Shown piece after piece: positions 3,660 through 41,574 of a stretch of 64,000 nt of DNA. Position 1 is the first letter of the stretch, and every line of letters starts with the position of its first letter. The stretch is from Candidatus Hydrogenedentota bacterium (GTDB lineage: Bacteria; Hydrogenedentota; Hydrogenedentia; Hydrogenedentales; SLHB01), in contig JBKHFO010000001.1 in NCBI GenBank assembly GCA_046540175.1, positions 9,936 to 73,935 of the forward strand, read 5' to 3'. A program made the position numbers and the translations under genes. The notes beneath the pieces are model-generated. The model saw nothing but the letters and a program-made list of their open reading frames with translations, was not told where the DNA came from and did not search any database.

Positions 3660-6233
3660 CTATTCGTAGGTGAAGACGGCCGTCGCGGCGCAATCGGCGT
3701 TCGCGCGGAGGCGGATCCAGTGGGCCGCGAAGCCCTCGGGGAACTCGTGGGTTACGGTTTCGCCCGCGGGCACGGTGAGTTCCGCGTAGGTGAAATACGT
3801 CTCGGGCGTATGAATCGCGCCGAAGATGTCGATCTCAAGCGCGAACGTCACGGCGCTGTCCGCGTCATGGCTTAGCTCGACCCGCTTGCGGTCGTAGCCG
3901 GTCATGAGGTACGGATCGCTCGCCTCGCCGGTTTCCACGGCCGTGCCGCGCCAGGGTCCGCCCACGCCGCGCGGCTTGCCCAGCTTCCAGAGGTCATCAA
4001 TATCGCCAACCCACAGCCCGGTCCGGCCGTCATCCGACGGGATAAGGTGGGGATGTTCGGGATCCGCACCGGCGGCCACTCCTGTAACCACCATCATGCC
4101 GAGCCACGAGCAGAAGTCGATGATCCGCTTGTTGTGTGTCGCCACGGGTTTCAAGGCGCGCACGCCGCCGGAGCTGTTGCGCGGCATCATGTAGAACGTG
4201 CCCGCGGCGTTGAGCAAGGCGCGCTCCGTCACTACTTCGCGCACGCGCCGGGGATCGCCGCCGGGCCAGGCCGCGCCGTAGGCTTCATGTCCTTTAGGCA
4301 GGCGGAACCGCGTGGCGCCTTGGAACAGGATAACCGAGGCTTCATCGATTTCGATATCCAGATCGCCGTCGGGCGCTTGCCCCATACCGCCCGCTTCGAT
4401 GGCGGCGTTTTGCCGCAGGTACTCGGCGGCGTCCGTGTCGTCGGGCTTGTGGCGTAGCACGAGGTCCTCGCCAATCTCGTAGTACCCCACGCCGCTGACT
4501 TCGCCGTCCGCGTCCACATGGCGCGCCCACAAGTGAAGCGTTTCCAGGTCCCCGCCGCGCGGCCGGATGATGCCCCGGGTGTAGGCGTCATTGGTCTCCA
4601 CGCTGGCCAGGGGCGCGAACATCGCCTCGTCCACGACGCTGCCCTTGGAGGGGCCGAAGTGGAAATGGGCCGTGGCCTGGCTCACGTCCCGGTCCGCGCG
4701 CACACGCATCCATTCCCCCGGCGCATCAGGCGGGATGACGTGGTGCGCGTAGCCCTCGGCGGGAACTTCGACCTCGGCATGGTCTTCCCAGTCGTTTTTG
4801 CCGGTGCGATCGATCTCGAGATGAAAGGTCACGGGTTCGCCGGAGTCGTGGCCCAGATGCAGCACCCGTTGCTCGTAGCCCGCGATGAAGAAGGGGACCG
4901 ACGGCGCGCCGCCCTCGACCGGATCCTCCATCCAAACGCCGCCCCATCCCACGGGCGCGCCCATATCGTGCAGGGCGTCCCACGTGGAGAACCAGAGGTT
5001 GGAGTGGCCTTGGCCCACAAGCGGATTGTCGAACGGCGAGGCGTCGTTGCAGGCGAACACCAGCTCGCCGTTCCAATTCTCCACGTCGCTGATGATCTTC
5101 AAGTAGGCGCTGATCGGGCGCAAGCCGGATCGATCGCCCGGCGTAAGGCGTATGGGAAAGTCGAACAAGCCGCCGTTCTTTATCATGAGCAGACGGGGCG
5201 GTTCGCCGTTCGCCGCTGGGACCGCCTCGCGGATGCGCGGCCATTCCGTGTGCCAACCATGATGGCCGTCGTACGAGAAGTCGGCCTTCGGCATACGGAA
5301 CTCCCGCCACTCTTCGTTCTCCATGACCATTAGAATGAGCGAGCGCTTATCCCAGCCCGTGGCCCATACCGGGGCCTCGTCATCGGGCGCCCCGTATATG
5401 CCCCCCGGTCCCGTGACCTCGGTGAACTGGCGCCGTTTGATGAGCCGCCACTCGTCTTCGCCATCCCAATCGGCCAGGATGCCCGCATCTTCATCGCTCT
5501 GATGCTCGGGATCAATCTGGTACTCGAAGGGCTGGAACGGATTCACCGTGCCAGAGGCGTGCTCGCCGTTGTTGCCAATGACGAGGCGGCCCTGGCCGGT
5601 GTAGGCGCCCTTGGCGTGCCAGCCCGGAACGGGCCGGGCGTAGAGAAGGTTCACCTCCAGGGTGTGCACGTCCACTTCGTACAGCAGCCCCTCCATATCA
5701 AAGTGGTAAACCTTGTTTCCGGGATCGTGCAGATGGCGGGCCGTTCCCGTGAGCCGGCCAAAGAGTTTATCCTCTTCCGGCGCGTCGGGCGCATCGCCCA
5801 TCGGAATTACCCGTATGTTGCGGTCCTCGTCCACGAAATAGGGGCCGATGAGGAGCTGGTTCGATTCCCGGTGAATCATGCGGTTGGCGGGCGTGCCGCC
5901 GACGCTATCCGGGAAATGCTCCCGGTTTAGGTCCTCGTTAATGATCCACAGCTTGTCCGAGCTGCCGCCCGGCGAATGCTGGTGATAGGTAATGACCCAC
6001 AGGCGGTCTTGCCATTTCACAACCGCGCCCACCCCGCACTCCCCCCCGCCGTCGCGGTTGAACACGGTGAGATGCGGATACCGCCCGCTGACCCGGAAAT
6101 GCCCTGGATTACCCGCCTGCGCCTGGACGGCGGCGCCCTCCAGGTTCTCCATAAACCCCAAGCTAGCGCCTGCGGCGGCCGTGGCGGCCAGAAACTGACG
6201 GCGCGTCAAACTACCTGCTGATTTCTTGGTCAT
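3660..6233 (-). CDS. Large Tat-secreted hypothetical protein (857 aa) with a C-terminal tandem duplicated domain
   Basis: MTKKSAGSLTRRQFLAATAAAGASLG twin-arginine signal. Two related C-terminal segments: ...SGEPVTFHLEIDRTGKND...WMRVRADRDVSQATAHFHF and ...DADSAVTFALEIDIFGAIHT...WIRLRANADCAATAVFTYE. No family motif recognised. Confidence 0.75.
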   Translation of the reverse strand: MTKKSAGSLTRRQFLAATAAAGASLGFMENLEGAAVQAQAGNPGHFRVSGRYPHLTVFNRDGGGECGVGAVVKWQDRLWVITYHQHSPGGSSDKLWIINEDLNREHFPDSVGGTPANRMIHRESNQLLIGPYFVDEDRNIRVIPMGDAPDAPEEDKLFGRLTGTARHLHDPGNKVYHFDMEGLLYEVDVHTLEVNLLYARPVPGWHAKGAYTGQGRLVIGNNGEHASGTVNPFQPFEYQIDPEHQSDEDAGILADWDGEDEWRLIKRRQFTEVTGPGGIYGAPDDEAPVWATGWDKRSLILMVMENEEWREFRMPKADFSYDGHHGWHTEWPRIREAVPAANGEPPRLLMIKNGGLFDFPIRLTPGDRSGLRPISAYLKIISDVENWNGELVFACNDASPFDNPLVGQGHSNLWFSTWDALHDMGAPVGWGGVWMEDPVEGGAPSVPFFIAGYEQRVLHLGHDSGEPVTFHLEIDRTGKNDWEDHAEVEVPAEGYAHHVIPPDAPGEWMRVRADRDVSQATAHFHFGPSKGSVVDEAMFAPLASVETNDAYTRGIIRPRGGDLETLHLWARHVDADGEVSGVGYYEIGEDLVLRHKPDDTDAAEYLRQNAAIEAGGMGQAPDGDLDIEIDEASVILFQGATRFRLPKGHEAYGAAWPGGDPRRVREVVTERALLNAAGTFYMMPRNSSGGVRALKPVATHNKRIIDFCSWLGMMVVTGVAAGADPEHPHLIPSDDGRTGLWVGDIDDLWKLGKPRGVGGPWRGTAVETGEASDPYLMTGYDRKRVELSHDADSAVTFALEIDIFGAIHTPETYFTYAELTVPAGETVTHEFPEGFAAHWIRLRANADCAATAVFTYE

Positions 6234-6354
6234 GGCGCCCCCCTGTCATGTGAGATTCGGTGTTCAGTTACCCCCGTGTAGTTCAATGGGTACTAGAATC
6301 TCATATGGACCGCGCCGTTTTCCAGGGGGCCCCCAATTATCCAGGCGCTGGTTG

Positions 6355-6783
6355 CTACGTTTTCCCGCGATACCCGTCGACGGACCACCGGTTGTCGCGG
6401 CACACGAAGTATAACGCCGCCACGGTCACAAGGATGTAATTGATGTTATTGGCGGTGGTGGGGGGATTCCCCATGACGTTGGTCCCCAGGGACAGCATGA
6501 TAAGCAGTACCCCCGTCACGGTGAGCATTGGCCTTGTAAAGATTCCCACGATGAGCGCCGCGCCGAGAAGCACCTCGATATACGGCAACACATAGGCGAA
6601 GGGCGCCACGAGAAAGACCGGCAAGTAGGTCTCCTCGAAGTTCCCGATCATGCCTTGGGCCGCGGCGACAGGTCCGCTGGCAATCTTGTTGATGCCGGCG
6701 AAGAAGAACAACACGCCGAGTCCCACGCGCAACAACAGGGCTGACACGGCTTCAAAAGGAAATGGTTTGTTGTTTCCAGTCAT
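6355..6783 (-). CDS. DoxX family membrane protein
   Basis: Translation MTGNNKPFPFEAVSALLLRVGLGVLFFFAGINKI... with 4 predicted TM helices typical of DoxX. The ATG at 6783 has AAGGGAG 8 nt upstream. The ORF-track start at 6810 is an upstream GTG. Confidence 0.8.
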   Translation of the reverse strand: MTGNNKPFPFEAVSALLLRVGLGVLFFFAGINKIASGPVAAAQGMIGNFEETYLPVFLVAPFAYVLPYIEVLLGAALIVGIFTRPMLTVTGVLLIMLSLGTNVMGNPPTTANNINYILVTVAALYFVCRDNRWSVDGYRGKT

Positions 6784-7406
6784 TGTAACGGCTCCCTTGT
6801 TACTGTTCACTCAGTGTCTGTGGTTTAGTAGCCATAAAGCCGCGGCCTAATCCATTGCGAACAGCGGAGAAGACATTGTTGCTGCAAATTATCGCCTCTA
6901 CCTCCACCTGATGTTCGCCGTCCCTCTGAGATGGCGAAAGTTTGCTTCCGTAATCATGTGGTATTAAAGGACCAACTTCACGTTTACTTGTACTTGGATA
7001 CTGTCTTCGTCCGCAAAAACTCCGCCGTAGGTTCCCCCCCTCCCACGAGAGTCACGGGCAAAACAGGTAGGACAATACTTTATATTTATAGTGTTTAATT
7101 TATCATAATTACACATTATGATTTCTACGCGTTGTTTCTTACAACTGTAATATAGCAAACAAAGGCTGGGAGCAGGGATATTCCGCGGATGGCGTTTGGA
7201 TCGATGGAGGAGGCTGCCGGGGGGGGAATAGAAGAACGCGGCCGGTCATTCCCCTCTTAATAGGAAGAGATATTGAAGCGTTCAAGCGTCTTTAGGGTGG
7301 CTTGCCTGAGGGCCATAGGCTGGGTGCGAACGGCCTTATTCAGCCCGCCCAGGGGGCTTTCCATGAGGTATCCCGTGCAACCGATGGGGCGGATTGGAGA
7401 TAGGCA

Positions 7407-8510
7407 TTACCACAAGGTCCCTTTGACGATGGGGACGCGAATCTCAAACCGCGTTCCCCCCGTTTCCAGGTCATCGTAGGAGACGGTTCCGCTGTGGGCG
7501 GTGATAATCCGGTGGACGATGGCGAGCCCGAGGCCGGTGCCTCCCTCTTTATGGGTTACGAACGGTTTGAACAAGTTCTGATCGGGAGGGGCCTGGATGC
7601 CGGCGCCGTTGTCATACACCTCGAAGAGCATATCCGCGTCCACCCGGTGAACCGCGATCAATACCCGGCCTTCCCCGGGCTCGACGGCGTCGATGGCGTT
7701 GTTGACCAAGTTGGAGAGCGCTTGGGCGATGCGGCTGGGATCGGCTTCCATCTCGGGAAGCCCAGGAGGGACGTCTTCCTCCAGCCGCACCCCTTTGTCT
7801 GCGGCCTTTTGCTGGCACAGGCGCAGGGTCCGCGCGACGATCATCTTGGGATGACAGCGGGTAATCTCGATTTGGAACGGCCGGGCGAAACCGAGAAACT
7901 GGCTGATGGTCCGTTCCAGATGGGCGGCCTCCTCGAAAATGGTTTGGGCCGTGTCGTGCAGGTCCTGATCATCCGCTTTGCGCTGGAGCCATTCCGCCAT
8001 TCCACTGATTACCATCACAGGGTTTCGCAGTTCATGGACTACGCCGGCGGTCAGCTCACCTAACGAGGCCAACTGCCGGTTAAGTTCGGCGGCCCGCTCG
8101 ATATTGCGGCGCTCTGTCATGTCCGTGAACAAGAAGATGACGCCGTTGAACGCATCGGGACCGTCCAGCAAAGAGGCCGACAGGCCGATCTCTCGCTTTT
8201 GTCCCTTGGCTATCTCAAGGACAATTTCCCGCCGCGAGATGGACTTCTGAGCGGTCATGACCTCCCGCATTACCTCCATGAAGGGCCGGGCAATGGGCAG
8301 ATCCTCAATGTGGATGCCCGGCGCGAAATCCAATTGATTGGCGTTGAGGAAGCCGCACGCAGCGGGGTTGGCGATGAGGATGCGGGCCTCGTTGTCAAGC
8401 GCCATGACGCCGCTAGGAAGGCTGTGGATGATCTGATTCGCGTAGTCGCTCATCGTTGGGGCGAGGGCTCTTTCACCGTCACCCCACGGGCTGCCTCGCT
8501 CAGGTTCCAT
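7407..8510 (-). CDS. PAS-domain sensor histidine kinase with no adjacent response regulator
   Basis: H-box HELRNP, N-box NLVNNAIDA, G1 DNGAGI, G2 GGTGLGLAI. An N-terminal PAS-like segment is present. The start was trimmed to the ATG with GAGGAC upstream, so the exact start is uncertain. Confidence 0.85.
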   Translation of the reverse strand: MEPERGSPWGDGERALAPTMSDYANQIIHSLPSGVMALDNEARILIANPAACGFLNANQLDFAPGIHIEDLPIARPFMEVMREVMTAQKSISRREIVLEIAKGQKREIGLSASLLDGPDAFNGVIFLFTDMTERRNIERAAELNRQLASLGELTAGVVHELRNPVMVISGMAEWLQRKADDQDLHDTAQTIFEEAAHLERTISQFLGFARPFQIEITRCHPKMIVARTLRLCQQKAADKGVRLEEDVPPGLPEMEADPSRIAQALSNLVNNAIDAVEPGEGRVLIAVHRVDADMLFEVYDNGAGIQAPPDQNLFKPFVTHKEGGTGLGLAIVHRIITAHSGTVSYDDLETGGTRFEIRVPIVKGTLW

Positions 8511-8642
8511 ATAGGGCGTCCTCGGTGGTGTCGCACATGATCTGAACTCCTTTGGCAGAGGGCCTTCCATAGGGCTAACGAGAGCCGTTCGGCCGTATTG
8601 CCGCCTTACCAGAGGGTCGTATCGGCCTTTTCGGCCAAGAAC

Positions 8643-9494
8643 TTAAGCGCGCTTTTTGCTGAGCGCCTTGGCGACGGCGGCGAATTCCGCGAGGGTAAGG
8701 GTTTGCGGGCGGCGGGAGGGGTCAATGCCGGTTTCGGAGAGGGCGTCCAGGGCGGCGTCCCGGTCAATGCCGAGTTCCGGCGCCTTGCCCAGCGTGTTGC
8801 GCAAGGTTTTCCTGCGTTGCCGGAAGGCTTTGTGGATGATGCCGAAGAGAAGGTCGTGGGCCACGCCGGGGTACAGCGGCGTCTCGCGGTTGCGCAAGCG
8901 TACGACGCAACTGTCCACCTTCGGCATGGGGCGAAAGCATGTCTTGGGGACATGATGGACGATGTCCACCTCGCTGTAATACTCCGCCGCTAGCGCCAAG
9001 ACCCCATAGTTCGCCGTGTTGACCCCGGCGCACAGGCGCTCGGCCACCTCGGCCTGCACCATGACGATCATGCGGTCGAAGTGGAGTGAACTCTCCCAGA
9101 AGTGAAAGAGAATGGGCGTGGTGATGTAGTAGGGGAGGTTCGAGGCCATCTTGAGGCGGTCAGGGCCGGGCAAGTATTCTTCCGCCAGTTTGCGCGGTTC
9201 GTGGTTGAGCACGTCGCCGCGGAAGAGGCGGATATTATCCACGGTCTCGAAACGGTCTTCCAGGCACGGCATGAACGAGGGGTCAATCTCAATGGCCAAA
9301 ATCCGCCGCGCGAGGGGATAAAGCTTCTCGGTCAACGCGCCCAGCCCCGCGCCAACCTCGATAACGTCATCCTCTTCAGAGAGCGCAGCGGCGTCCACCA
9401 TGATACGGTTGATGTTGTCGTCCAGCAGCAGGTTTTGGCCGAGCTGCTTTTTGAACCGGATGTTGTATTCCCGGCACATGTCTTGCAAACGCAT
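8643..9494 (-). CDS. rsmA: 16S rRNA (adenine1518/1519-N6)-dimethyltransferase
   Basis: REYNIRFKKQLGQNLLLDDNI matches the KsgA N-terminal RKRFGQNFL motif. SAM-binding VIEVGAGLGALT is present. The ATG at 9494 is preceded by AGAGGTGAT. Confidence 0.9.
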   Translation of the reverse strand: MRLQDMCREYNIRFKKQLGQNLLLDDNINRIMVDAAALSEEDDVIEVGAGLGALTEKLYPLARRILAIEIDPSFMPCLEDRFETVDNIRLFRGDVLNHEPRKLAEEYLPGPDRLKMASNLPYYITTPILFHFWESSLHFDRMIVMVQAEVAERLCAGVNTANYGVLALAAEYYSEVDIVHHVPKTCFRPMPKVDSCVVRLRNRETPLYPGVAHDLLFGIIHKAFRQRRKTLRNTLGKAPELGIDRDAALDALSETGIDPSRRPQTLTLAEFAAVAKALSKKRA

Positions 9495-9513
9495 GAAATC
9501 ACCTCTGGAATAT

Positions 9514-9781
9514 CTCACGCCACGGCGCTACGTTTCCCCAATCGCTGGACAAGGCGGCATGCCGGTTGTTTACATCCCCCTTGATCCCCCCCTTCCAAGG
9601 GTGAACCATAGCGCCGCCCTCCAGGCGGCTTATGTGCCGGCAAGATGCCGGCGGTACGAATTATTTCCCCTTTGAAGGGGGTGGCCCGAAAGGGGCGGGG
9701 GATGTTCTTCTGCTTACGCCTCACGCCACGGCGCTACGTTTGATTGAGTTCTCGTGGCGTCGTAGCGCCGTGGCGTGAGGC
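9514..9781. repeat. Composite repeat. The 21-mer CTCACGCCACGGCGCTACGTT occurs three times (9514-9535 direct, 9719-9738 direct, 9761-9780 inverted), enclosing a GC-hairpin repeat copy (9536-9716). The 21-bp perfect palindrome 9718-9781 is terminator-like.
   Basis: Direct reading. The 9621-9709 core is about 85% identical to 61802-61883. The palindrome is CCTCACGCCACGGCGCTACG-22nt-CGTAGCGCCGTGGCGTGAGG. Confidence 0.6.
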
Positions 9782-9803
9782 CAATTCGTCGATGAAGGGG
9801 CGC

Positions 9804-10949
9804 TTATTCCCTTAAGCCTTGGTTGCGGAAGAGGTAAACGCCTTCCTTGCCCGGCGCGATGATGTCCTTCCAGCCGTTGCCCGTGATGTCCTCGACCCAG
9901 AAGTAAATTCCCGCGCCACTGGCTTCTTCCGGCGGACCGTAATCAATGGTGACGCGCTCGAAGGCGCCGCCGTTGATCTTGAAGTAATAGAGGCCGGCGG
10001 GATCGTCCGCGCCTGGGTCGGCCCCGTCATGCGCCCGGTAGCGCTTGCCGGTGATGAGGTCGAGGTCGCCATCGTTGTCAATGTCCGCCAGGCGGAGGTC
10101 GTGATACTGGGAGCGATCGGGGTCGATCATATGCTTTTCCCAGCTCCGGTTTCCTTCCTCATCCCGCTTCTGTTCCATCCAGTAGAGGCCGTAGTCATGG
10201 CCCTCGCCCACAATGAGGTCGTTGAGGCCGTCGCCATTGACGTCGTGGACCAAGATGGGCACGCTGGCCGAGCCCAGATCAAAGTCGGCGTGGAAGGGCC
10301 ATTCGTCTTCCATTGGATTCCCGGGGTGCTCGAACCAGCCATTGGCCGACACGATGTCGCCCCGGCCGTTGCCCGTTATATCGCCGAACCCTAGGCCGTG
10401 CCCCGTGTTCTGGTTACTAATGGTGTGTTCCTCGAACTCGCCGGTCCCCTGTCCGTCTTCATCGCGCACCAGCCGGAAGATGCGTTGCGGATTATTGGGC
10501 GTGTTGGGCGCGATCTCGACATGGCCGTCGCCGTTGATGTCCCAGAAGCATGGGCGTTCGACATTGCCTATCGTGGCGATGTCATGGGTTTCCCACTCCA
10601 CGGGCTCGCCTTCGGGATTCTCCCGCCATCGCACGCTTTCGTTAAACCACCCGCCCGTGACGATGTCCATGTAACCATCGCCATTCACGTCCATGGGATA
10701 GTCCGAGAATGAGTCGTAATATGTGCCCTCTTGCCGAATGTCCGTGATCTTGTGCGAGGTCTCGAAGTCCGGTCCTTCAAACCAGTACTCACCCGAAACG
10801 ATATCCATGACGCCATTGTTGTTGATGTCGACGGCCGAGGCGGTCTCGTAGGTCCCCTCTCCTAACTGCTGGCGCTCGAACCACACTTCGCCGTCGCCCT
10901 CCGGGGCCCCAAAGGCCGCCGCTGTCATCATGATCAAAGTGCCTACCAT
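9804..10949 (-). CDS. Secreted FG-GAP/VCBS-repeat beta-propeller protein
   Basis: Start trimmed to MVGTLIMMTAAAFGA (signal peptide; GAGGAG upstream). Repeats VDINNNGVMDIVSG, MDVNGDGYMDIVTG, WDINGDGHVEI, GDITGNGRGDIVS, HDVNGDGLNDLIVG, ADIDNDGDLDLITG and EDITGNGWKDII. The longer ORF-track version overlaps the next gene. Confidence 0.75.
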   Translation of the reverse strand: MVGTLIMMTAAAFGAPEGDGEVWFERQQLGEGTYETASAVDINNNGVMDIVSGEYWFEGPDFETSHKITDIRQEGTYYDSFSDYPMDVNGDGYMDIVTGGWFNESVRWRENPEGEPVEWETHDIATIGNVERPCFWDINGDGHVEIAPNTPNNPQRIFRLVRDEDGQGTGEFEEHTISNQNTGHGLGFGDITGNGRGDIVSANGWFEHPGNPMEDEWPFHADFDLGSASVPILVHDVNGDGLNDLIVGEGHDYGLYWMEQKRDEEGNRSWEKHMIDPDRSQYHDLRLADIDNDGDLDLITGKRYRAHDGADPGADDPAGLYYFKINGGAFERVTIDYGPPEEASGAGIYFWVEDITGNGWKDIIAPGKEGVYLFRNQGLRE

Positions 10950-11010
10950 TGGATGGATCTCCTCTCTAGTTGGGGCTTCCGCAGGCAAGGCCGCCTGCGC
11001 CAGGGGTGTT

Positions 11011-12387
11011 TCACTGCTCCGCCAGCCCGCACAGGAATCGAATGTAGGTTTCGATGCCCCGGAAGAAGTTGGGGAGATGGTGCTTCTCGTTTGGGCCGTG
11101 GATGCCGTCGCCGGGCATCGCGCAACCCAGCATGACCGTGTCCACCCCCAGCTTGGTCTGGAGCAAGTGAACGATGGGAATCGTTCCCCCTTCCCTTCGG
11201 AACACCGGCGGAACGCCAAACACGTCCTCCAACGCCTTTTGCGCCACCTTCATTGCCGGGGCGTGGCGGTCCATGATCGCGGCGGGCGCGTGGGTCATCT
11301 CCCGCACTTCCCACAAAACGGATTCCGGGGCGTTCCGCCGCATGTATTCGCAGAGTTGGCCGTAGACTTCGCCGCTATCCTGATCCGGCACGAGCCGCAT
11401 CGAAATCTTGGCCAAGGCCGTGGCGGGGAGAACGGTCTTGCTGCCGGTCCCCGTGAACCCGCTCACGAGACCGTTTACCTCGAGGGTGGGACGCGCGCCG
11501 ATCCGTTCAAGCACGGTGTAACCGCTTTCGCCCCAAAGCGCCGGAGCGCCGCTCATTTCCAGCCATTCCGTGTCGGAATGCGGCAATCTCGCCATGGATT
11601 CCCGTTCATCAGGCTCCAATTCGCGCACGTTGTCATAGAATCCCGGCAGGGTCACCCGGCCTTCCGCATCATGCATGCCCGCGATGAGTTCACACAAGGC
11701 CTGCGCCGGATTGTGGACGGCGCCGCCGAAGAGGCCGGAATGGAGGTCCTTTTCCGGACCGCGGACTTCAAGCTCAAAGTAGGCGAGACCCCGCAACGCA
11801 TAGGTGATGGCGGGCGTATCGGGCGCGTGGATGCCGGAATCGCAATTGAGCACCCCGTCGCAGCTTAGCATGTCCGAGTGGGCGTCGATAAAGGCGCCGA
11901 GATGAGGGGAGCCCACCTCCTCCTCGCCTTCGAGCAGAAACTTGATGTTGACAGGCAGTTCTCCTTGCGCGCTCAAGGCGTCCACGGCCCGCAAAATGGC
12001 GGTTATCTGGCCTTTCATATCGGACGCGCCCCGGGCATGAATGTCTTCCCCGCGGATGACAGGCTCGAACGGAGGGGAGTCCCATTCGTCCCACGGATCC
12101 GCGGGCTGGACATCGTAATGGCCGTAGATCAAGATGGTGGGCCGTCCTTCGGCGCCCAACCAGTGGCCATATACGATCGGATGGCCCTCGGTGGGGAAGA
12201 TCTCCACGTCCTCCATCCCCAGCCGGCGCAGTTCATCGGCGAGCCATTGCGCCGTGCGCTGCACGTCCGGGGCGTGTTCAGGCAGCGTGGAAATGCTTGG
12301 CATGCGCAAGAGCGCTTTAAGCTGTTCGAGGTGGGCCTCGCGCTGGGCGCGGGCGTATTGGCAAGCCTCTTCGGCAGGTGGCGGCAT
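11011..12387 (-). CDS. M20 family metallopeptidase (dipeptidase / ArgE-DapE-like)
   Basis: IYGHYDVQP, HARGASDMKG, EGEEEVGS and the overall M20 layout with a dimerisation insert. Confidence 0.85.
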   Translation of the reverse strand: MPPPAEEACQYARAQREAHLEQLKALLRMPSISTLPEHAPDVQRTAQWLADELRRLGMEDVEIFPTEGHPIVYGHWLGAEGRPTILIYGHYDVQPADPWDEWDSPPFEPVIRGEDIHARGASDMKGQITAILRAVDALSAQGELPVNIKFLLEGEEEVGSPHLGAFIDAHSDMLSCDGVLNCDSGIHAPDTPAITYALRGLAYFELEVRGPEKDLHSGLFGGAVHNPAQALCELIAGMHDAEGRVTLPGFYDNVRELEPDERESMARLPHSDTEWLEMSGAPALWGESGYTVLERIGARPTLEVNGLVSGFTGTGSKTVLPATALAKISMRLVPDQDSGEVYGQLCEYMRRNAPESVLWEVREMTHAPAAIMDRHAPAMKVAQKALEDVFGVPPVFRREGGTIPIVHLLQTKLGVDTVMLGCAMPGDGIHGPNEKHHLPNFFRGIETYIRFLCGLAEQ

Positions 12388-12489
12388 GACAATCGGGGTC
12401 CTTTCAGGCCATTACTGCGTTTTGGTGAGACGTCCTCTTTTTGCGGAGCGCTACGTTACGATAAGCGCGCAACCAGAGAGACAGAGCGT

Positions 12490-15400
12490 TTATCGTCTGT
12501 ATTCCGATGGGCCAAAAACAACGTATAGGCCCGCGGGCCGGTCGAGCGCGCTGAAGGTCTCTCTTTCAGCATTGAAGCGCGCGTCTTCCACCGGCCGCCA
12601 GCCGTCATTGGGGTGGTGGTAATAGAGTCGAAGCTCCTCCATATGCTCTTCGTCACACACCCCGGACGGCAAGCGCGCGCTTATGCTCGCGCGTACGCCG
12701 ATCCCCTCGGGATGATGCTCCAATCGCAGGTATTCGGTGAAGGCGGCCAGGCCTTCCGGAGGCGGCGAAGGCGGCTGGTTGGGAATAGCCACACGCGCTT
12801 GGATGGCGGTGTTGGCTTGCACATGGAACGTGGCCTGCATCTCAGGGGCCCTGACCTGAATGTTACGGCCCCATTGAACCGGGCCAACCGCTTTGTAATC
12901 CTCGTCGGGTTGACCGCCGGACGTTTCTTGTTCTTGCTGCGCCCGCAACCGGGCCGCCGCCTCTTTTCCTTCTTCGTCGGTGAACGCGAAGTGGCGCCGG
13001 GGCCCTTCTTGCGGCGAGCTGTCACCATCAGGCGTATACTGAATGACGGGATCCCGCTCTTCCTGACGATCTTGTTCCTCCGCTTGCGCTTGCCGGCGCT
13101 GCTCGGCCATGGCCTCGTCTTCGGGCCGGCTGAACTGCATGCGCTGCGGAGGGGCGGTCTCTTCGTCTTCCGGCGGCGTGTACTCAATGACGGGCTCCCG
13201 CTCGCCGGCTTCAGGCGTTCTGAACGCTTCCGCCTCCTCAGGCGGCTCCTGAGCGCCGGGTTCGGTGTCCGTGGGCTCATCGGGGAGTTGCGCCACCTGC
13301 TCGGGATCATCTTCGGCCATGGAATCCTCGCGTGGCGTCAGGATGGACCCCGTGCGGGGTGGCGTCAAGGTGTCTTCCCTATCCTCGTCCGGCTGGGTTG
13401 CCCCTTCAAACACACGAAAACGGCCGTCGTTCCGCAGACCCGTCAAGGACACCCCTTCTCTGGCCTCGCCGGCGGGTTCAATGTGCATGTGCGAGCCGCC
13501 CGGTTCTTCGGATTGTTCCTTGCCTTCGTCGTCCGTGAAAGGACTGACTTCTTCACCCGGCGCGACCGGTGGCGCGAGATCTTCCAGCCCGCCTTCCAGC
13601 GAGAAGGGACCGGCATGGTCTTCGGGATCGATCTCCATGGGTTCGGCGGGATCCCAATCGGGATCGCGCGGCGTCACGCCAAACCGGCTCTCCACCTCGA
13701 CCTCGGGCCTCCGGAGAAACGCGTCCGGTCCCAGGACGGCGAACGTCTTCGCGCCTTGCTCCCGCGCGGAAAGGGTGCGAATTTCCGATTGGTTGTCTTG
13801 AAGCTCGGCAGGCCGCCATTCGCCCGAGGCGTCACACACCCAAATCCCTAGATAGGGAAAATGGCGGCTGTCGGCCAATGTCTCCGGGATGAAGACATCG
13901 ACATTCACCATGAACGGCGCTTCAGCGCGCGCGGTCTCCAGTTCCGCGAACAGACTGAATGCGGCTAGCCCTTCCGGCAAGGGCGCGGGCGGTTCACTGG
14001 ACACGTCCAAACTCGCCACGATCGGCGTTTCGGCTCGAAGCTGGAATTGCGCTTCGATGCCTTGGGGGCGAAGCAGGATGTTACGGCCGACTGCGCGTTG
14101 CGCCGCCCGTTGCACTTCGTCGTGGCGGAAGCGCGTGCGTTTGAAGCGGCGATCGGTGAACAACTCGAACTGATCGTCGTAATGGGGAGAACGGGGGTCT
14201 TGAGACGTCCCAAAGGGAAGTATGCTCACTGCTTCGGGTGTTTCGCCGAATCGCACGGCCATCGCGTAGCCGTACCCTTTTTGCACGGGCCGGGGACTTG
14301 AATTGCTTGCGGTGGGCCGGTCGGAGAAGAAGATGCTCTCTCCCGAGGCTCCGCCGGGCAGGGGGGCGTTCTTATCGCCGCGTTGCGCGCGGTGCACATA
14401 TTCCCAGGGGACCGACAGGCTCTGGTGCTGGTTGCGCAGATGCTTGGCGGCTTCTCCCACCGCCCGCAGCGAGAGTTCTCGCATCGCCTCGCTATCCTCG
14501 CGAACGGCGGCGCGTAGGCGTTTTTCGTTGTGTAAGACAGGGGGCGCGATGGCCTTGAGCGCGCGCCACCACGCGTCGAAACAGGTCATTCCCACGCTGC
14601 TTGGCTCGGCCATGTAGTTCCAGTCCCGCAAAATGTTCAGGGCCGCCGGCACGTCGGGGTGAATACGCGTGAGGGCGTTCTGGTGCGCTTCTCCTGCTTG
14701 AAGCAAATGGGGCACGGCTTCCATGGCGAACGGCGCGGCTACGTCATAGAGCATGGACTGAATGTCGTGGAAATTGCGGGGAGAGCGCCCCAGCAGGCTC
14801 CGCACGCGCCGCGCGCGCGCCGTGTCCGCATCGCGCACGAACCAATAGGGGTAATCCGAGGGGGCAATGTCCGCGTTGTTGGTCGCGCCCCACGGCGGCG
14901 TGCCGCTGGCCTGGACAAAGCCCGCGCCTGGGTTGGTGAGGCTCGGCAAGGCGGATAGAGGGACAAGGGGCCCCCACCTGTACCGGGTGTCCCCGGAAGG
15001 CACAGGGCTTTGCCAGTCCACGAAATGGGGGTCCTCGTCTTCCTCGCCGCCGGGGTCGCTCCCTTCGATGATTCGAGTCTCTCCCTCGCTAAGCGAACCC
15101 ATGTATTTTGTGCCGACTGTGGCATTGTAAAGGTAAAAGATGTTGCCGGCCCGGTCGGCGTACACCACGTGGAATGAGGGGAGTTGCCGCATGGCCAGGG
15201 CTTCCTGGAACTCGCGCAGGTTGCGGGCCCGGCCCATCTCCATGAGCTGGCGGAGCCCACCCAACTCGGTGTAGCCCCCCACCTTGTACGAGACTTGCCG
15301 TCCCCGGAACGTCCCCACCACCGGTCCGCGCGGAGTATGAACCTGCTGCACGTGACGCTCCGCGAAACCGGTAGGCGTTCGAACCGTAAAGGGGACGGTA

Positions 15401-30165: not shown

Positions 30166-30198
30166 GTGCCGTTTCGCCTTTCACACAGTTTCCGATGA

Positions 30199-30330
30199 GC
30201 GACTTACAGAAGTCAAGAGGAGGTCCGCCTTCTTGCCGTAACCGATCACAATATCGAGTATTTCAAGCACCGTCCAGTAATTCTCCGCAAGATTTATCCG
30301 CGGCCAAGGGACTTCTGCAAGCCGCTGCGA
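30199..30330. repeat. MITE-like 130-bp element with imperfect terminal inverted repeats, copy 1
   Basis: About 85% identical to the reverse complement of 41575-41706. Ends are GCGACTTACAGAAGTC ... GACTTCTGCAAGCCGC. Confidence 0.55.
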
Positions 30331-30390
30331 TGTCACTTTTTTAAGGAGGAGCCTATGCGCTATACTTGCAGGCCTTGATTGGGGAGCACG

Positions 30391-31296
30391 ATGAAGCTAA
30401 CGCCAAACCAAGAGCGGCGCATAACCAAGTACTTACAGGACGTTCACGCCCAAACCGAAGGGCTCTCCGACGCCCAACGGCGCCGGGCGCTCGCCCATGT
30501 GAAGGCGCAGTTGCGCGAACGGCTCCAACAGTATACAGATGCCGCTCCCGAGGATACCGAACTTGAGGCGATTCTAAACAACTGCGCGCTGCCCGGCTTT
30601 GTCTCTTCCGCTGCTAACCAGGAGGCGCGGGAGGTGGGGGATGTGGAGGCATTGGAGCCCAGCGCCTCTCCGCAAGACACTTCCCCGCCGCAAAATGAAC
30701 CCCGAGCGGCGCGCGGCGATTTCCTCGAACTCGAGGGCCGCGTTTGGCTTGGCGTTTGCTCGGGGCTTGCCCGCTACCTCCGGATAGAATCCGCCATTGT
30801 CCGCATCATCGCCGCCGTCGTGGGCGTGGCGACCTTGGGATTCCTCCTTTGGGTTTACGTGGGATTATACCTGTTCTTCTATCTGCGCGACCGCTCCGGG
30901 GTGTTGCCGCCCCTTGATGTGCTTCCTGTCGTGCGGCGCATGGCGGGAATGCTGGCGTTAGGGATTGTCATGTTCGCCGTTGGTGAAATGGCGCTGTGGG
31001 CGATGGGCGCGGTCGCGGGGCTGGCCGCCGGGCATGGAATCACTGTTGACGCCGCCTGGGGCTGGTTTGCCGAGCGAAATGGGACCATCGTGTTTTGGAC
31101 CCTTGTATTCGCCCTTCCCTTGGGGGCCATGAGCGCCATGCCCGTCGCCGAAGGCTGGGACTACACGCTTAGGAAACTAGCCCAAGCCTGTCTGGCCGTG
31201 TACGCGCTGCTCCTCACGTTTGGTCTGGCGTGCCATTTCGTGGGACTGCTGCTGGAAGCTACCGGCGCCGGGACGGGCGTCACCACCGGGGAATAG
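30391..31296 (+). CDS. PspC-domain membrane protein
   Basis: RVWLGVCSGLARYLRIESAIVRI (PspC motif) followed by several TM helices. ATG at 30391 with GGGGAG upstream. The ORF-track start at 30379 is a TTG. Confidence 0.75.
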   Translation: MKLTPNQERRITKYLQDVHAQTEGLSDAQRRRALAHVKAQLRERLQQYTDAAPEDTELEAILNNCALPGFVSSAANQEAREVGDVEALEPSASPQDTSPPQNEPRAARGDFLELEGRVWLGVCSGLARYLRIESAIVRIIAAVVGVATLGFLLWVYVGLYLFFYLRDRSGVLPPLDVLPVVRRMAGMLALGIVMFAVGEMALWAMGAVAGLAAGHGITVDAAWGWFAERNGTIVFWTLVFALPLGAMSAMPVAEGWDYTLRKLAQACLAVYALLLTFGLACHFVGLLLEATGAGTGVTTGE

Positions 31297-31411: not shown

Positions 31412-31564
31412 CAAGCCATCCGAATTGTAGGAACATAGGCAGGCGATTGTCAAACCAACGGCCCTTTTCCCAATTACCGGGCAGGCGCTGTGCAGGCTGG
31501 GCGCATCCCCCCGCCCTTCGGCCCACTCCCTAAAAGGGCGGAAAGTATTCGCCATATTCGCCCT

Positions 31565-31612
31565 TTGAAAGGGGTAAGGGGGATGTTCTTTCCCCCCCAA
31601 AGGCCAACGCGA
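31565..31612. repeat. Short copy of the GC-hairpin repeat family (CCCTTTGAAAGGGG...GGGGGATGTTCTT)
   Basis: TATTCGCCCTTTGAAAGGGGTAAGGGGGATGTTCTTTCCCC matches 9661-9712 with an internal deletion. Confidence 0.4.
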
Positions 31613-34322: not shown

Positions 34323-36317
34323 GTGTTACAAGCGAGGCCGCGCCACCTTAACCGGGATATGCCCCAACCACCCATGACGCATTTCGACGAATCGTCCACG
34401 GGGGAAACCATGTCCCCATCTCTTCCTTCGGACGGAGACGCCCTGCCGCCACGCGCTACCTCCTCTCTGTGGCGGGCGGTGCGCGGCTGGCTCGTTTGCG
34501 CCGTTCTCGTGGCGTGCGCCGTGGCGTATGCCTTTCCCTTGAGTTCTTTCCTTCACGCCAAGGACGCCGTCTTTATGACGGGGCTCGCGATGGCGGCGGG
34601 CGTCTTGCTGGCCGAGACCTGGCGCGCGCCGGCCGCCGCCGCGGGCGCCGTGCAAGGGCTCCGGGCTTTCACGCCGCTGTGGCTGTTTCTGCTGTTCAGC
34701 CTGTTTGCTCACGCCGCACTGGGACAAGCCCGCGTGCCCACGGATACCGTCCTCGAGATTGTGCGGCTCGCCGCCTTGTTGGCGCTGGCGCCGGTGATGT
34801 GGGATTTGGCCTTCGAGGCTCAATGGCGCCAACGCTTCCTCGGGGCGTTGATTGTCGCCGCCGTGGTGGTGGCGCTTCTGGCTTTGGGCCAGTTCGCGGG
34901 CTGGCTGGACCGGCTCTTCCCCCCTCAACCCGGCTACACCCAACCCATGTACTCCGTGTTTGGCAACCAGAATCTGCTCGGCGGTTTCGTGGCGTTGGGG
35001 TTTGTACTGGCGGTCTACAAGGCCTTGGACGCAACGCGCCTCTTTTTGTACTGGGCGGCGGGCGCGGCGGCGCTGGGGGTGGCGCTGCTCTTGTCCGAAA
35101 GCCGGACGGCCTGGCTCGCCGCGGCCGTTGGTCTGCTGTGGGCCATTGGTCCCATGCGGCGATCGCCCCGGCGCGCGGCGATATTGGCGGGCGTGGGGGC
35201 CGTGGCGGTCATCGCGGCCGTGGCGGCGGCGGGGCCTGAAACGCTGAGCGAGAGGCTCACGGATCCATTTGGGGCAGAAGACGTGGGAGGCCGTGCGCGG
35301 CTGTGGTTCTGGGAGGGGGCGTGGCGCATGTTCTTGAGCGCCCCGCTTGTCGGCGTGGGGCTGGGCAATTTCCCGTATTGGTCACCCCATTTCCAAGGCG
35401 CCGCCTTGCACGCTCCCGGCGGAGAAGCCCATTACCACAACGAATTGCACACCGTTTACGCGCACAGCGATCCGCTTCAACTGCTCGCTACGGCGGGGGT
35501 GATCGGGATGCTCTTCCTCGGCTGGATGGCGTGGCGGCTGCGGGGCGTGAGGGGGATCACGCTCGGCGGGCTTGCTACCCTGGCCGTGTTCGCGTGCTTC
35601 AACTTCCCGTTGGCCAGCGCGCCTCACGCCGCCGCGGGGGTGGTGCTCGCAACGCTGGTGCTGGCTGAAAGAAGAGGAGGCAAAACCCATCCCATCCACA
35701 TGCCAAACGCCCATACGACGCGCAACGCGCCGCCGGCGTCTCGCCGGCTTTGTACTGTGACCGCCGCGGCCGTCTTCGCTGGGACGTTGGGCGCCGCCTT
35801 TTTCTATTGCGCGGCCGTGTTGCCGCCAAGCCATTGGCTGCGGATGGCGGAAAACCAAGCGTTGGAAGGCGAGAGCGGGCTTGATGACTACCGCCGGGCG
35901 GCGGAGCATTTCTGGCCCAACCCGCGCGCCCTTGAACGCTATGGCTACGCCCTTGCCCGGGAAGGCCGCAAGGAAGAAGCGCGGGAAGTCTTGGAACAGG
36001 CGCTCCAATACCGGGATACGGGCTCGCTGCACATGATGCTCGCCGCTGTCGCTTCCCGCCTCTCGGACGAGCAGACTATGCGAACGCATGCGGACGAGGC
36101 GCGGTTCCGGATTCCCGGCGAGGGGGCCGCGTGGTTTCTTGCGCTTGCGGCGCGGTCCCAGGCGGAATGGCCCGCGCTTAGGGAGGAGGCCTTGCAATGG
36201 CTCGATCCCGGGGAGTGGGAGAGGATCACGGAGAAGGCGCGGGGCGTCAGGGAACGAATCGAGGCCGGAGCACCGCGTAGATCCGCGGCTGAATTCTCAC
36301 GTCGAGCGGTCCCGTGA
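34323..36317 (+). CDS. O-antigen ligase/polymerase-like (Wzy_C) polytopic membrane protein with C-terminal TPR region
   Basis: Many TM helices. The periplasmic loop ...GLGNFPYWSPHFQGAALHAPGGEAHYHNELHTVYAHSDPLQLLATAG (conserved H...H..E pattern of the WaaL/Wzy_C domain). TPR-like C-terminus. Start ambiguous. Confidence 0.7.
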   Translation: MLQARPRHLNRDMPQPPMTHFDESSTGETMSPSLPSDGDALPPRATSSLWRAVRGWLVCAVLVACAVAYAFPLSSFLHAKDAVFMTGLAMAAGVLLAETWRAPAAAAGAVQGLRAFTPLWLFLLFSLFAHAALGQARVPTDTVLEIVRLAALLALAPVMWDLAFEAQWRQRFLGALIVAAVVVALLALGQFAGWLDRLFPPQPGYTQPMYSVFGNQNLLGGFVALGFVLAVYKALDATRLFLYWAAGAAALGVALLLSESRTAWLAAAVGLLWAIGPMRRSPRRAAILAGVGAVAVIAAVAAAGPETLSERLTDPFGAEDVGGRARLWFWEGAWRMFLSAPLVGVGLGNFPYWSPHFQGAALHAPGGEAHYHNELHTVYAHSDPLQLLATAGVIGMLFLGWMAWRLRGVRGITLGGLATLAVFACFNFPLASAPHAAAGVVLATLVLAERRGGKTHPIHMPNAHTTRNAPPASRRLCTVTAAAVFAGTLGAAFFYCAAVLPPSHWLRMAENQALEGESGLDDYRRAAEHFWPNPRALERYGYALAREGRKEEAREVLEQALQYRDTGSLHMMLAAVASRLSDEQTMRTHADEARFRIPGEGAAWFLALAARSQAEWPALREEALQWLDPGEWERITEKARGVRERIEAGAPRRSAAEFSRRAVP

Positions 36318-41568: not shown

Positions 41569-41574
41569 ACCTCA

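Follow-up and report, generated by a model that had tools for sequence, protein, structure and literature searches.

Palindromic repeats of probable REP/REPIN class in intergenic mosaic clusters of a Candidatus Hydrogenedentota genome

Introduction

Several spacers in the window (the whole 64,000-nucleotide stretch of DNA analysed here) carry related GC-rich hairpins, one set of them upstream of ksgA, and the question is what kind of element these hairpins belong to. A preliminary description, made from the DNA letters, proposed a single interspersed element of 90-180 bp and left two readings side by side, a REP/BIME-type repeat and a family of small structured RNAs. A full-text literature search on the hairpin sequences returned no paper, and no paper joining Hydrogenedentota and REP terms was found in the literature searched. 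The analysis below leads us to consider it probable that the elements are palindromic DNA repeats of the REP/REPIN class that lie in BIME-like mosaic clusters.

Results

The two large copies, at the ksgA locus (copy 1) and within a cluster at ~61687-61921 (copy 2), were 82% identical over 83 nt without gaps (9597-9679 against 61778-61860) and 82.6% identical over 109 nt with gaps (E=1e-23), near the ~85% over an 85-bp core reported earlier. The 23-mer GCCGGCAAGATGCCGGCGGTACG occurred four times in the window at up to 3 mismatches (0.00 expected), CCCCTTYRAAGGGG three times (0.06 expected) and GGGGGATGT five times (0.91 expected), and the repeat regions folded far more stably than shuffled sequences (z = -7.8, -7.6 and -6.0). 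The flagged sequences were confirmed as genuine repeat copies, far above chance. At least four copies had been claimed for the window; two large and at least three partial ones were present, the copy at 57009-57064 having been overlooked. The loci named at that stage stood but their extents did not, and these are now placed at 9514-9783, ~61687-61921, 31504-31590 and 62042-62068 (Table 1).

In all, the 64 kb held four copies of the hairpin designated REP-R and about five repeat loci. Every one of the five loci was intergenic, as had been proposed, with flanking genes assigned by Pfam to RrnaAD/ksgA, FG-GAP, AhpC/TSA, MoxR AAA_3 and BatA/VWA. The pair at 57009-57064 occupies the 106-nt spacer separating two VWA genes of the Bat operon, both flanks being VWA/BatA. 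A REP-like hairpin was also seen at 35727-35748, inside a Wzy_C/TPR gene. A coding reading of a separate 132-nt repeat at 30196/41573 was rejected, its mismatches being without clear three-base periodicity.

Table 1. Features of the repeat loci, in coordinates of the window.
Position	Strand	Feature	Remarks
9514-9532	-	Copy 1, outermost unit CTCACGCCACGGCGCTACG	Reverse complement of GTAG-headed CGTAGCGCCGTGGCGTGAG
9533-9580	-	Copy 1, left outer arm of carrier palindrome TTTCCCCAATCGCTGGACAAGGCGGCATGCCGGTTGTTTACATCCCCC, ending ACATCCCCC	9536-9580 matches 61875-61919 inverted
9586-9603	none	Copy 1, left C-type hairpin CCCCCCCTTCCAAGGGTG	Degenerate
9608-9629	+	Copy 1, REP-L ATAGC-GCCGCC-CTCCA-GGCGGC	Perfect 6-bp hairpin
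9636-9658	+	Copy 1, REP-R GCCGGCA-AGA-TGCCGGC-GGTACG	7-bp stem, 3-nt loop
9667-9680	none	Copy 1, right C-type hairpin CCCCTTTGAAGGGG	
9683-9705	+	Copy 1, D hairpin GGCCCGAAAGGGGC, then terminal GGGGGATGT	
9718-9781	none	Perfect 21-nt inverted repeat GCCTCACGCCACGGCGCTACG ... CGTAGCGCCGTGGCGTGAGGC	Closes nested palindrome (inverted-repeat search and fold)
31504-31590		Carrier-only copy, tRNA-Ser/bcp spacer	Two inverted arms with no REP doublet between: D hairpin and GGGGGGATG at 31504-31551 (-); C hairpin and GGGGGATGT at 31551-31590 (+)
57009-57064		REPIN-like pair, Bat-operon spacer	Truncated inverted REP TCGTACCGCCGGCATC and GCCGACAAGATGCCGGCAGTACG
61694-61716	-	Copy 2 cluster, inverted REP-R CGGACCGCCGGCATCTTGCCGGC	Pairs with 61817-61839 in fold
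61732-61785		Two C-type hairpins	CCCCTTCGAAGGGG at 61732-61745; TCCCCCGAAGGGGGA at 61771-61785
61789-61839	+	Copy 2 REP doublet	Degenerate REP-L GTATC-GCCGTC-TTCCA-GGCCGC; REP-R GGCGGCACGATGCCGGCGGTCCG with 3 mismatches
61847-61883	+	C hairpin, D hairpin and GGGGGATGT	C hairpin 61847-61860; D hairpin GGCCCGCAGGGCC 61862-61874; GGGGGATGT 61875-61883
to ~61921	+	Right outer arm of copy 2	61875-61919 is the inverted match to 9536-9580
62042-62068	+	Solitary C-type hairpin GAAGGATTTCCCCTTTGAAGGGGGAGG	

Copy 1 sits within a nested palindrome spanning 9514-9783. Inside it, REP-L and REP-R form an inverted doublet (9608-9658) with a 6-nt spacer. The REP-L hairpin proper (9613-9629) has a 6-bp stem and a 5-nt loop, and alignment of related copies gave GTAGC-GCCGCC-TTCCA-GGCGGC as its consensus in the lineage; REP-R, read head-first on the minus strand, is CGTACC-GCCGGC-ATCTT-GCCGGC. 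The ACATCCCCC that ends the left outer arm is the reverse complement of GGGGGATGT. The outermost unit recurs as a direct repeat at 9720-9738 and inverted at 9761-9781 (inverted-repeat search), and this CGTAGCGCCGTGGCGTGAG/CTCACGCCACGGCGCTACG unit was present in three copies in the window, three in Hydrogenedentota loci and none in other loci.

The copies are made of two parts. The core is the REP doublet, GTAGC-GCCGCC-TTCCA-GGCGGC plus GCCGGC-AAGAT-GCCGGC-GGTAC. The carrier consists of C4-5TTYRAAG4-5 and GGCCC-GNA-GGGCC hairpins, GGGGGATGT ends, an outer arm of ~45 nt and the CGTAGCGCCGTGGCGTGAG unit, and its modules combine into nested palindromes 100-270 bp long between genes. Carrier modules, including the outer-arm motif, were found only in Hydrogenedentota loci (98 kb, compared with 971 kb of other loci), with the right C-type hairpin motif CCCCTTTGAAGGGG counted 19 times in the former and 0 times in the latter. 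REP hairpins, unlike carrier modules, span phyla, so that the two parts differ in taxonomic range. Within the Hydrogenedentota lineage REP doublets sit inside or beside carrier modules; the composite is a cross-phylum REP doublet nested in Hydrogenedentota-specific palindromic modules. Module content and order varied from copy to copy, both within the window and across 17 related copies, and relatives carried head-to-tail tandem units of ~105 nt (locus L093) or dense clusters (L008). The repeats first described are real, but they do not form a single unit of 90-180 bp; independent palindromic modules make up a mosaic instead.

REP-L and REP-R are both GC-rich stem-loops of the kind by which REPs are defined, imperfect palindromes of 20-40 nt. 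Their heads in the window were GTAC(C), GGAC(C), ATAG(C) and GTAT(C), with GTAGC in the lineage consensus of REP-L, and the head is conserved as G-K-A-S rather than as a strict GTAG. Inverted REP pairs with a short spacer that form a long hairpin, which is the arrangement of a REPIN, were found at 9608-9658, at 57009-57064 and in the combination of 61694-61716 with 61817-61839. The clusters as a whole are mosaics of REP types and other motifs in variable composition, as BIMEs are.

A degenerate 23-mer scan detected the core hairpin in more than 105 genome stretches, the matches listed covering about nine phyla; by our own estimate ~0.5 matches would arise by chance, or at most ~7 if all DNA were 65% GC. 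Four Hydrogenedentota MAGs contributed 18 of the at least 105 listed stretches, and related fragmentary MAGs each held at least 9-10 exact 23-mers. As the cross-phylum loci were picked by the 23-mer, they are uninformative on the general conservation of the hairpin. Two of the loci (L007 and L097) had a RAYT (IS200-like Y1_Tnp) gene adjoining the core hairpin, and these two RAYTs have diverged to ~42% identity. The L007 protein passed the NCBIfam REP_Tyr_transpos model (80.7 bits, cut-off 80), and the doublets flanking its gene likewise have the REPIN arrangement. L097 also contains a 1445-aa ORF with REP-encoded peptides inside it.

Of 80 metagenomic loci that carry a RAYT of this clade, 77 had GC hairpins of like head, stem and loop design within 400 nt of the RAYT gene, and the density of headed hairpins was 6.5 per kb at up to 150 nt from the gene compared with 0.11 per kb at distances beyond 1 kb. 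RAYT-adjacent hairpins bore the heads GGAGC (129), GGACC (53) and GGAAC (16), and also GTACC and GTAGC; the 80 loci had mostly GGAGC/GGACC heads, with loops GTCCC, GTCTC, TTCCA, ATCCT and ATCTT. The RAYT of a further locus, L111, was flanked by the REP-L consensus, GTAGCGCCGCCTTCCAGGCGGC; between L111 and Hydrogenedentota sequences no similarity was detectable. Hydrogenedentota carrier motifs occurred at 0 of the 80 metagenomic RAYT loci, and no RAYT gene was recovered from the 64 kb of the window or from 98 kb of Hydrogenedentota sequence (18 loci) by tblastn, the queries being E. coli RayT and the RAYTs of L007 and L097. The REP/BIME-type reading of the preliminary description was supported by the REP design of the hairpins, their inverted doublets and mosaic clusters, their multiple copies in relatives and the position of such hairpins beside RAYT genes elsewhere.

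Close relatives differed at these sites. The syntenic locus of a related species (L003, ~90% identity) keeps the outer arms and has the REP doublet inverted; synteny with a MAG at this level of nucleotide identity also assigns the organism of the window to Hydrogenedentota. There the CTCACGCCACGGCGCTACG unit of 9514-9532 is conserved and the left outer arm ~93% conserved, the D hairpin and GGGGGATGT module of 9683-9705 is missing, and the REP-L stem is changed with compensation from GCCGCC/GGCGGC to GCTACC/GGTAGC. The inversion could reflect recombination between the flanking inverted C-hairpins, for which a transposase is unneeded. A strain of 99.8% identity (L001) was without 109 nt that contain a doublet, the segment in which 61732-61785 falls; this indel could have arisen in assembly, as an artefact, or by deletion between direct ACAATTCCCCCTT repeats, again with no need of a transposase. 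In the same species, contigs assembled from short reads break off in or next to REP-R (L191 and L192 at 9649, L002 at 61683).

These comparisons bear on whether the composite of 130-250 bp might be a MITE, that is, an IS deletion derivative moved by a DDE transposase, with REP hairpins as passengers and either ACATCCCCC...GGGGGATGT or the longer CCCCAATCGCCGG... arms as terminal inverted repeats. The inverted 9-mers at both ends of copy 1, the longer inverted outer arms, the lineage-specific, multicopy carrier modules and the carrier-only copy at 31504-31590 are what a MITE would lead one to expect, and copy 1 is bracketed by direct 19-nt repeats (9514-9532 and 9720-9738). This direct repeat of 19-22 nt looked like a target-site duplication; it was rejected as such because the L003 orthologue, in which the right-hand partner is an inverted copy, places it in a further nested set of inverted repeats. 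In the full-length copies L056, L087, L019 and L003 palindromy runs outward with no flanking direct duplications. A MITE has fixed terminal inverted repeats and a target-site duplication of constant length, whereas the termini here are not fixed, module order and content differ by copy, L093 has head-to-tail arrays, and no transposase gene adjoins any copy, including the dense L008 cluster. We consider a MITE distinctly improbable.

The second reading of the preliminary description, small structured RNAs, fared poorly, also when widened to cis-regulatory leaders or attenuators with hairpins under RNA selection. The fold predicted for the RNA is highly stable (z = -7.6), copies occupy the 5' region of ksgA, that of the Bat operon and a spacer within an operon, and the ksgA copy is kept at the orthologous site of another species. 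However, Rfam searches of the whole window at the gathering threshold returned only tRNA, and relaxed searches of both main loci gave far-sub-threshold generic hairpins and no relevant match. Pairing in 17 copies (85.6%) was no better than the mean of column shuffles, with 3 compensated cells and most departures breaking pairs. The palindromic elements occur in both orientations relative to transcription, with no orientation bias found among copies, and the core is inverted at the orthologous L003. One composite copy is translated in frame inside a 1153-aa DnaE2-like ORF in L021. Terminator or promoter function was considered and rejected: there were no sigma-70-like sites, and the terminator-like matches, 4 where 2.1 were expected and not above chance, were only C-hairpins with weak T-tails. 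An RNA family is, in our judgement, very improbable indeed.

The repeats might also be functional sites that spread anciently, are now immobile and are maintained by the host, as binding sites for gyrase, IHF or a nucleoid protein or as mRNA 3'-end stem-loops. Such roles are among those proposed for E. coli REP/BIME (PMC3479197, and in the excerpted text of PMC3733652), the element upstream of ksgA persists over ~10% nucleotide divergence, and one copy lies between genes of a single operon. Many copies are nevertheless degenerate with broken stems, module content is variable, and strains of 99.8% identity differ by an indel and species by an inversion. Host-maintained sites would be compatible with a REP origin; as the explanation for the repeats we give them little chance.

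Discussion

Repeats of the REP/REPIN class, the reading that we prefer, would work as follows. Each core REP comprises a GTAG-like head (G-K-A-S-C), a GC stem of 6-7 bp (GCCGGC/GCCGCC) and a loop of 3-5 nt (ATCTT/TTCCA). In other bacteria this type of hairpin flanks a single-copy RAYT, which presumably processes it. RAYTs are IS200-like transposases of the HUH/Y1 tyrosine type; they bind the hairpin once it has folded on single-stranded DNA and cut beside it. Such cutting would spread, invert or delete doublets without target-site duplication. In E. coli, the GTAG head and the hairpin are needed for RAYT binding and for cleavage of single-stranded DNA (PMC3479197), and GTAG-tagged REP families, some fused to unrelated stem-loops, are described from many phyla in the excerpted text of PMC3733652. 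The copies in the window were probably mobilised by a RAYT of their source genome, and effects on neighbouring genes such as mRNA 3'-end protection, pausing or protein binding would be a by-product.

A bolder version of this scheme, which we think unlikely, would treat the doublet of ~50 bp as an invertible and excisable cassette within the carrier, the product of a very old domesticated REP-RAYT system with a host-constrained hairpin, and as a possible DNA switch upstream of the ksgA ribosome-binding site. If so, flipping of the doublet directly 5' of that site could act as a switch at the DNA level. The idea draws on a hairpin design kept across at least nine phyla despite RAYT divergence. 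That recurrence may need no special explanation, given that the loci were selected by the 23-mer and that the sequence space of GC hexamer stems and NTCYN loops is small.

Assignment to REP/REPIN repeats would extend the RAYT-type repeats to a candidate phylum; it concerns an ordinary repeat class and no new kind of system. The locus offers a clean case of modular nesting together with inversion and indel variation between close relatives. The repeats also account for the breaks of short-read assemblies at these sites in Hydrogenedentota, and they are a warning for annotation, since translation of the repeats yields several of the long "ORFs" of high GC content and unusual peptide inserts such as ...RQDAGGT... 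and ...NAGFQPA....

Among known systems, Rickettsia palindromic elements (RPEs) can sit in frame within protein-coding genes, and palindromes in frame inside genes were likewise seen here in the ORFs of L021 and L097. RPEs are unrelated in sequence to the present repeats, however, and all main window copies are intergenic. The excerpted text of PMC3733652 names RPEs as members of the CGTC family and describes CGTC-tagged repeats as not associated with transposase genes.

The E. coli REP/BIME system with the RAYT TnpA-REP (rayT/yafM) is closer in organisation. Its REPs, too, are imperfect palindromes, short and rich in GC, each headed by a conserved 5' tetranucleotide; they occur singly, in mosaic intergenic clusters and as inverted pairs whose two types differ slightly, and its RAYT belongs to the same NCBIfam family (NF047646) as the one adjoining the same hairpins in L007. 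The sequences themselves are unrelated. The head here is G-K-A-S (GTAC, GGAC, GGAG, GTAG) and not a strict GTAG, stems of 6-7 bp are shorter than in E. coli and near-perfect, the clusters hold additional palindromic modules that are not REPs, and no RAYT was found in Hydrogenedentota (window and 18 loci). The REPINs of Pseudomonas fluorescens (Bertels and Rainey 2011, PMC3116915; PMC3337134) are likewise inverted REPs that form a larger hairpin, multicopy and intergenic, with a RAYT gene flanked by doublets as in L007 and with persistence at an orthologous site as in L003. In Hydrogenedentota, by contrast, the doublet spacer is ~6 nt (~50 nt in L007) and a second palindrome encloses the doublet.

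With the GTAG-tagged REP super-family (Di Nocera et al. 2013, PMC3733652), as described in the excerpted text, the present repeats share tagged stem-loops, dimers and clusters, occurrence in many phyla and linkage to RAYTs in 'REPtrons'. The likeness to its 24 GTAG families is one of organisation. Neither Hydrogenedentota nor Sumerlaeota figures among the taxa that this text names, and the GGGGGATGT end of the carrier does not fit the GGGGWSAS TIR motif given there. The same text describes, for P. putida and P. fluorescens, degenerate REP units joined to unrelated stem-loops in hundreds of copies, and it is these 'double palindromic' structures of REP plus stem-loop that the composites of REP and carrier in Hydrogenedentota resemble.

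In this Hydrogenedentota genome, palindromic repeats of the REP/REPIN type and lineage-specific palindromes together make up the elements, which form BIME-like clusters.

Repeat copies in the window

The two large copies in the preliminary description, in the ksgA 5' region (copy 1) and the Bat operon leader (copy 2), were confirmed, with 82% identity over 83 ungapped nt, or 82.6% over 109 nt when gaps were allowed (E=1e-23). Motif counts were far above chance: the 23-mer GCCGGCAAGATGCCGGCGGTACG occurred four times at up to three mismatches (chance expectation none), CCCCTTYRAAGGGG three times (0.06 expected) and GGGGGATGT five times (0.91 expected). The single-strand DNA fold of copy 1 was far more stable than shuffles (z = -7.8), and the fold of 61685-61925 gave z = -6.0; the minus-strand RNA fold of copy 1 gave z = -7.6. 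All five repeat loci were intergenic, and the flanking genes were in keeping with the preliminary description: ksgA/RrnaAD (start ATG at 9494; Pfam and the gene call in a same-species assembly), an FG-GAP repeat gene (Pfam), tRNA-Ser, a bcp-like AhpC/TSA gene (Pfam) and the MoxR-DUF58-BatA/VWA operon (Pfam). The loci listed previously were real, but one between two VWA genes had been overlooked, and the tRNA-Ser/bcp copy, although present, had been placed slightly off its true span.

The sequences described as a single element exist, but their structure is a mosaic in which modules combine differently in each copy. The right half of copy 2 was as in copy 1, with a right outer arm that was an inverted match of the copy 1 left arm; further left lay two additional C/G hairpins and an inverted REP-R (REP-L and REP-R being the two inverted hairpins of the core REP doublet). 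Because the 31.5-kb copy comprised two inverted carrier arms without the doublet, and the 57-kb copy a REP pair without carrier modules, the doublet and the carrier modules (C hairpin, C4-5TTYRAAG4-5; D hairpin, GGCCC-GNA-GGGCC; outer arm; GTAG-headed outermost unit) occur independently.

Coordinates of repeat copies, their modules and neighbouring features in the window
Feature	Position (nt)	Description
Copy 1	9514-9783	Nested palindrome
Copy 1, outermost module	9720 (direct), 9761 (inverted)	CTCACGCCACGGCGCTACG unit, repeated
Copy 1, next inward		Outer arm, ~45 nt, ACATCCCCC at its end
Copy 1, inside outer arm		C-run/G-run hairpin
Copy 1, REP doublet		AGC-GCCGCC-CTCCA-GGCGGC, TTATGT, GCCGGCA-AGA-TGCCGGC-GGTACG, in that order
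Copy 1, second C/G hairpin		CCCCTTTGAAGGGG
Copy 1, D-type hairpin		GGCCC-GAAA-GGGGC, then GGGGGATGT
Copy 2	~61687-61921	
Copy 2, inverted REP-R	61694-61716	Pairs with 61817-61839 in predicted fold
GCCGGCAAGATGCCGGCGGTACG copies	9636(+), 57042(+), 61694(-), 61817(+)	At most 3 mismatches
31.5-kb copy	31504-31590	tRNA-Ser/bcp spacer
57-kb copy	57009-57064	In 106-nt spacer between two VWA genes
REP-like hairpin	35727-35748	GCGCC-GCCGGC-GTCTC-GCCGGC
132-nt repeat	30196-30327 (+), 41573-41704 (-)	86% identical, both intergenic
300-nt direct repeat	48225-48524, 49659-49958	78% identity, 1434 nt apart
Gene-poor stretch	61013-62329	~1.3 kb without convincing gene
ORFs	61025-61627(-), 62180-62662(-)	Look like GC-composition artefacts
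Stretch without counterpart in L003	6985-7156	172 nt, largely AT-rich

Several further features were observed in the window. The REP-like hairpin fell in the interdomain linker of the gene at 34323-36317 (Wzy_C O-antigen ligase plus TPR); it may be a relic of an in-frame REP or have arisen by chance. The 132-nt repeat was about 50% GC, compared with 61% for the window, and its first copy ended about 50 nt upstream of a PspC-domain gene (30379-31296); its mismatches showed no clear three-base periodicity, and it may be a small RNA, a leader, a gene remnant or another repeat family. The two copies of the 300-nt direct repeat, within or beside long minus-strand ORFs, are probably paralogous gene segments. 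Repeats occupied only about one quarter of the gene-poor stretch, which is flanked by the divergent MoxR/Bat operon and by a large secreted-protein-like gene from ~62330 (no Pfam match).

Variation between relatives and assembly breaks

We compared the window with related contigs, including L003 (Hydrogenedentota MAG BLK6-3.bin.159; syntenic with 5963-13965 at 83-91% identity) and L021 (Hydrogenedentota MAG B1Sed10_145; 86-87% identity to 7399-8908). In L003, the orthologous spacer upstream of ksgA retained the outer units and left arm, with the central doublet reverse-complemented relative to the window and the D hairpin absent; the REP-L stem of this doublet, GCTACC/GGTAGC as against GCCGCC/GGCGGC in the window, differed by two compensated pairs. 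L003 also had, between the element and the ksgA start, a 47-nt insertion (~4440-4490, minus strand) that ended in about 11 consecutive G. The 172-nt stretch missing from the otherwise collinear L003 lay in the spacer between a MauE/DoxX-type gene (6355-6810) and a PAS histidine kinase gene (7407-8570).

A 99.8% identical strain (L001; GCA_046539725.1, JBKHGL010000177.1; flanks 99.4-99.8%) lacked 109 nt (~61736-61844) containing two C hairpins and a REP doublet. The junction was not a simple crossover between two ACAATTCCCCCTT direct repeats, and the indel could be a real polymorphism or an assembly collapse or artefact; the ksgA element was unchanged on another contig of that assembly (L190). 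In unitig-level assemblies of SRR19844286 and SRR19844287, contigs (L191, L192, L002) ended at window positions 9649, inside REP-R, and 61683, just before REP-R, a pattern that a multicopy repeat would cause. Recognizing Hydrogenedentota REP clusters is useful for annotation and assembly.

Structured RNA and MITE readings

The preliminary description had also offered a small structured RNA as an explanation. The repeat loci matched no Rfam family. Across 17 copies that were collected by sequence similarity and aligned, pairing held in 85.6% of cells, equal to the shuffle mean, with only three compensated cells. REP-L copies departed mostly by broken pairs or G-T pairs, which reads as copies decaying from a master sequence. 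In addition, the elements are palindromic and found in both orientations, one of them in frame inside an L021 ORF, and the structured RNA reading was not supported. A MITE was likewise not supported: the copies showed neither a target-site duplication nor fixed termini, and the direct repeat on either side of copy 1, an apparent duplication, is part of the nested inverted-repeat set. No transposase gene was found beside any copy, and terminator or promoter signals at the elements did not exceed chance.

The in-frame L021 element (5472-5651) was a full composite within a 1153-aa ORF, translated as ...VSPPSRGIMCRQDAGGTNHSPFEGGSRGMSSKENPTAHSPLEGGGSQGRGMS... with conserved polymerase segments on either side; the ORF flanks look to us like those of an error-prone DNA polymerase (DnaE2-like).

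Taxonomic spread of the hairpins and their carrier

In species-representative genomes, more than 105 stretches were among the matches listed for GSCGRCAMGATGCCGGCRGTMCG, compared with about 0.5 chance matches by our own estimate, or at most ~7 if all DNA were 65% GC. Going by their record titles, those listed were from Acidobacteriota (34), Hydrogenedentota (18), Sumerlaeota (15), Alphaproteobacteria (14), Planctomycetota (9), Verrucomicrobiota (6), Chloroflexota (Anaerolineales; 3), an unclassified bacterium (3), and Lentisphaerae, "Proteobacteria" and "Deltaproteobacteria" (1 each); the full composite was confined, among these matches, to Hydrogenedentota loci. By motif counts REP-R and REP-L were found across phyla, unlike the carrier modules: 98 kb of Hydrogenedentota loci held 19 C hairpins, 10 D hairpins with GGGGGATGT, 8 outer arms and 3 CGTAGCGCCGTGGCGTGAG units, whereas none of the four occurred in 617 kb of other-phyla loci or 354 kb of RAYT loci (RAYT, IS200-like Y1 tyrosine transposase). 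Since the search pattern itself dictated the 23-mer identity across phyla, and stems and loops at loci chosen by RAYT protein varied inside a narrow design, the recurrence of one hairpin in phylum after phylum may come from the limited range of sequences allowed, and not from transfer or exceptional conservation.

Tandem arrangements were also seen: a Lentisphaerae locus (L009) carried REP hairpins head-to-tail every ~30 nt, and a Hydrogenedentota locus (L093) at least two head-to-tail ~105-nt units of C hairpin, D hairpin, GGGGGATGT and REP doublet.

REP-type hairpins flank RAYT genes elsewhere

Read head-first, REP-R (CGTACC-GCCGGC-ATCTT-GCCGGC) and REP-L (GTAGC-GCCGCC-TTCCA-GGCGGC) have, as judged from sequence, the REP layout of tetranucleotide head, GC stem and short loop. 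Hairpins accompanying the 23-mer, outside the search pattern, had G-K-A-S-C heads and TTCCA, ATCCT, GTCCC or GTCTC loops. In tblastn searches with E. coli RayT, relatives adjoined such hairpins in a Hyphomonadaceae locus (L007) and a Terriglobia locus (L097); both were Pfam Y1_Tnp proteins, 42% identical to each other, and the former passed NCBIfam REP_Tyr_transpos (80.7 bits; cut-off 80). The L007 gene (972-1460) lay between two REP doublets, one being GGAGC-GCCGGC-TTCCA-GCCGGC ... GCCGGC-AAGAT-GCCGGC-GGTCC. A metagenome scan with an alignment of the two proteins returned at least 575 relatives. Of the 80 loci kept, 77 had GC hairpins with a head and a perfectly paired stem within 400 nt of the RAYT gene, most commonly one inward-pointing per side. 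Hairpin density was 6.5/kb within 150 nt of the gene compared with 0.11/kb beyond 1 kb, with 18 different stems represented. One RAYT (L111) was flanked by GTAGCGCCGCCTTCCAGGCGGC, the REP-L consensus, and a GTACC-headed inverted partner. The REP/BIME reading was right: REP-type hairpins occur here in clusters, and the same design flanks RAYT genes elsewhere.

In the Terriglobia MAG (L097, 1157-5494), the RAYT domain and flanking REPs lay in the same frame and orientation inside an ORF of 1445 aa that carries an NPPY motif and resembles a gene for a restriction enzyme or DNA methyltransferase, the REPs being translated repeatedly as ...NAGFQPAPEQSRQDAGAT...; this may be a REPtron insertion, tolerated or disruptive, or else an ORF call that runs too long.

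We infer that a RAYT in this genome mobilises the repeats. By tblastn, no RAYT turned up in the 64-kb window or in 98 kb of Hydrogenedentota sequence, a sample small enough relative to a several-Mb genome that a single-copy gene would usually be missed. In E. coli, TnpA-REP binds the head and hairpin on single-stranded DNA, and the site it cleaves, CT, is determined by bases A3 and G4 of the head (PMC3479197). From many phyla, PMC3733652 describes GTAG-tagged REPs, RAYT "REPtrons", and composites in which a REP unit is joined to an unrelated stem-loop.
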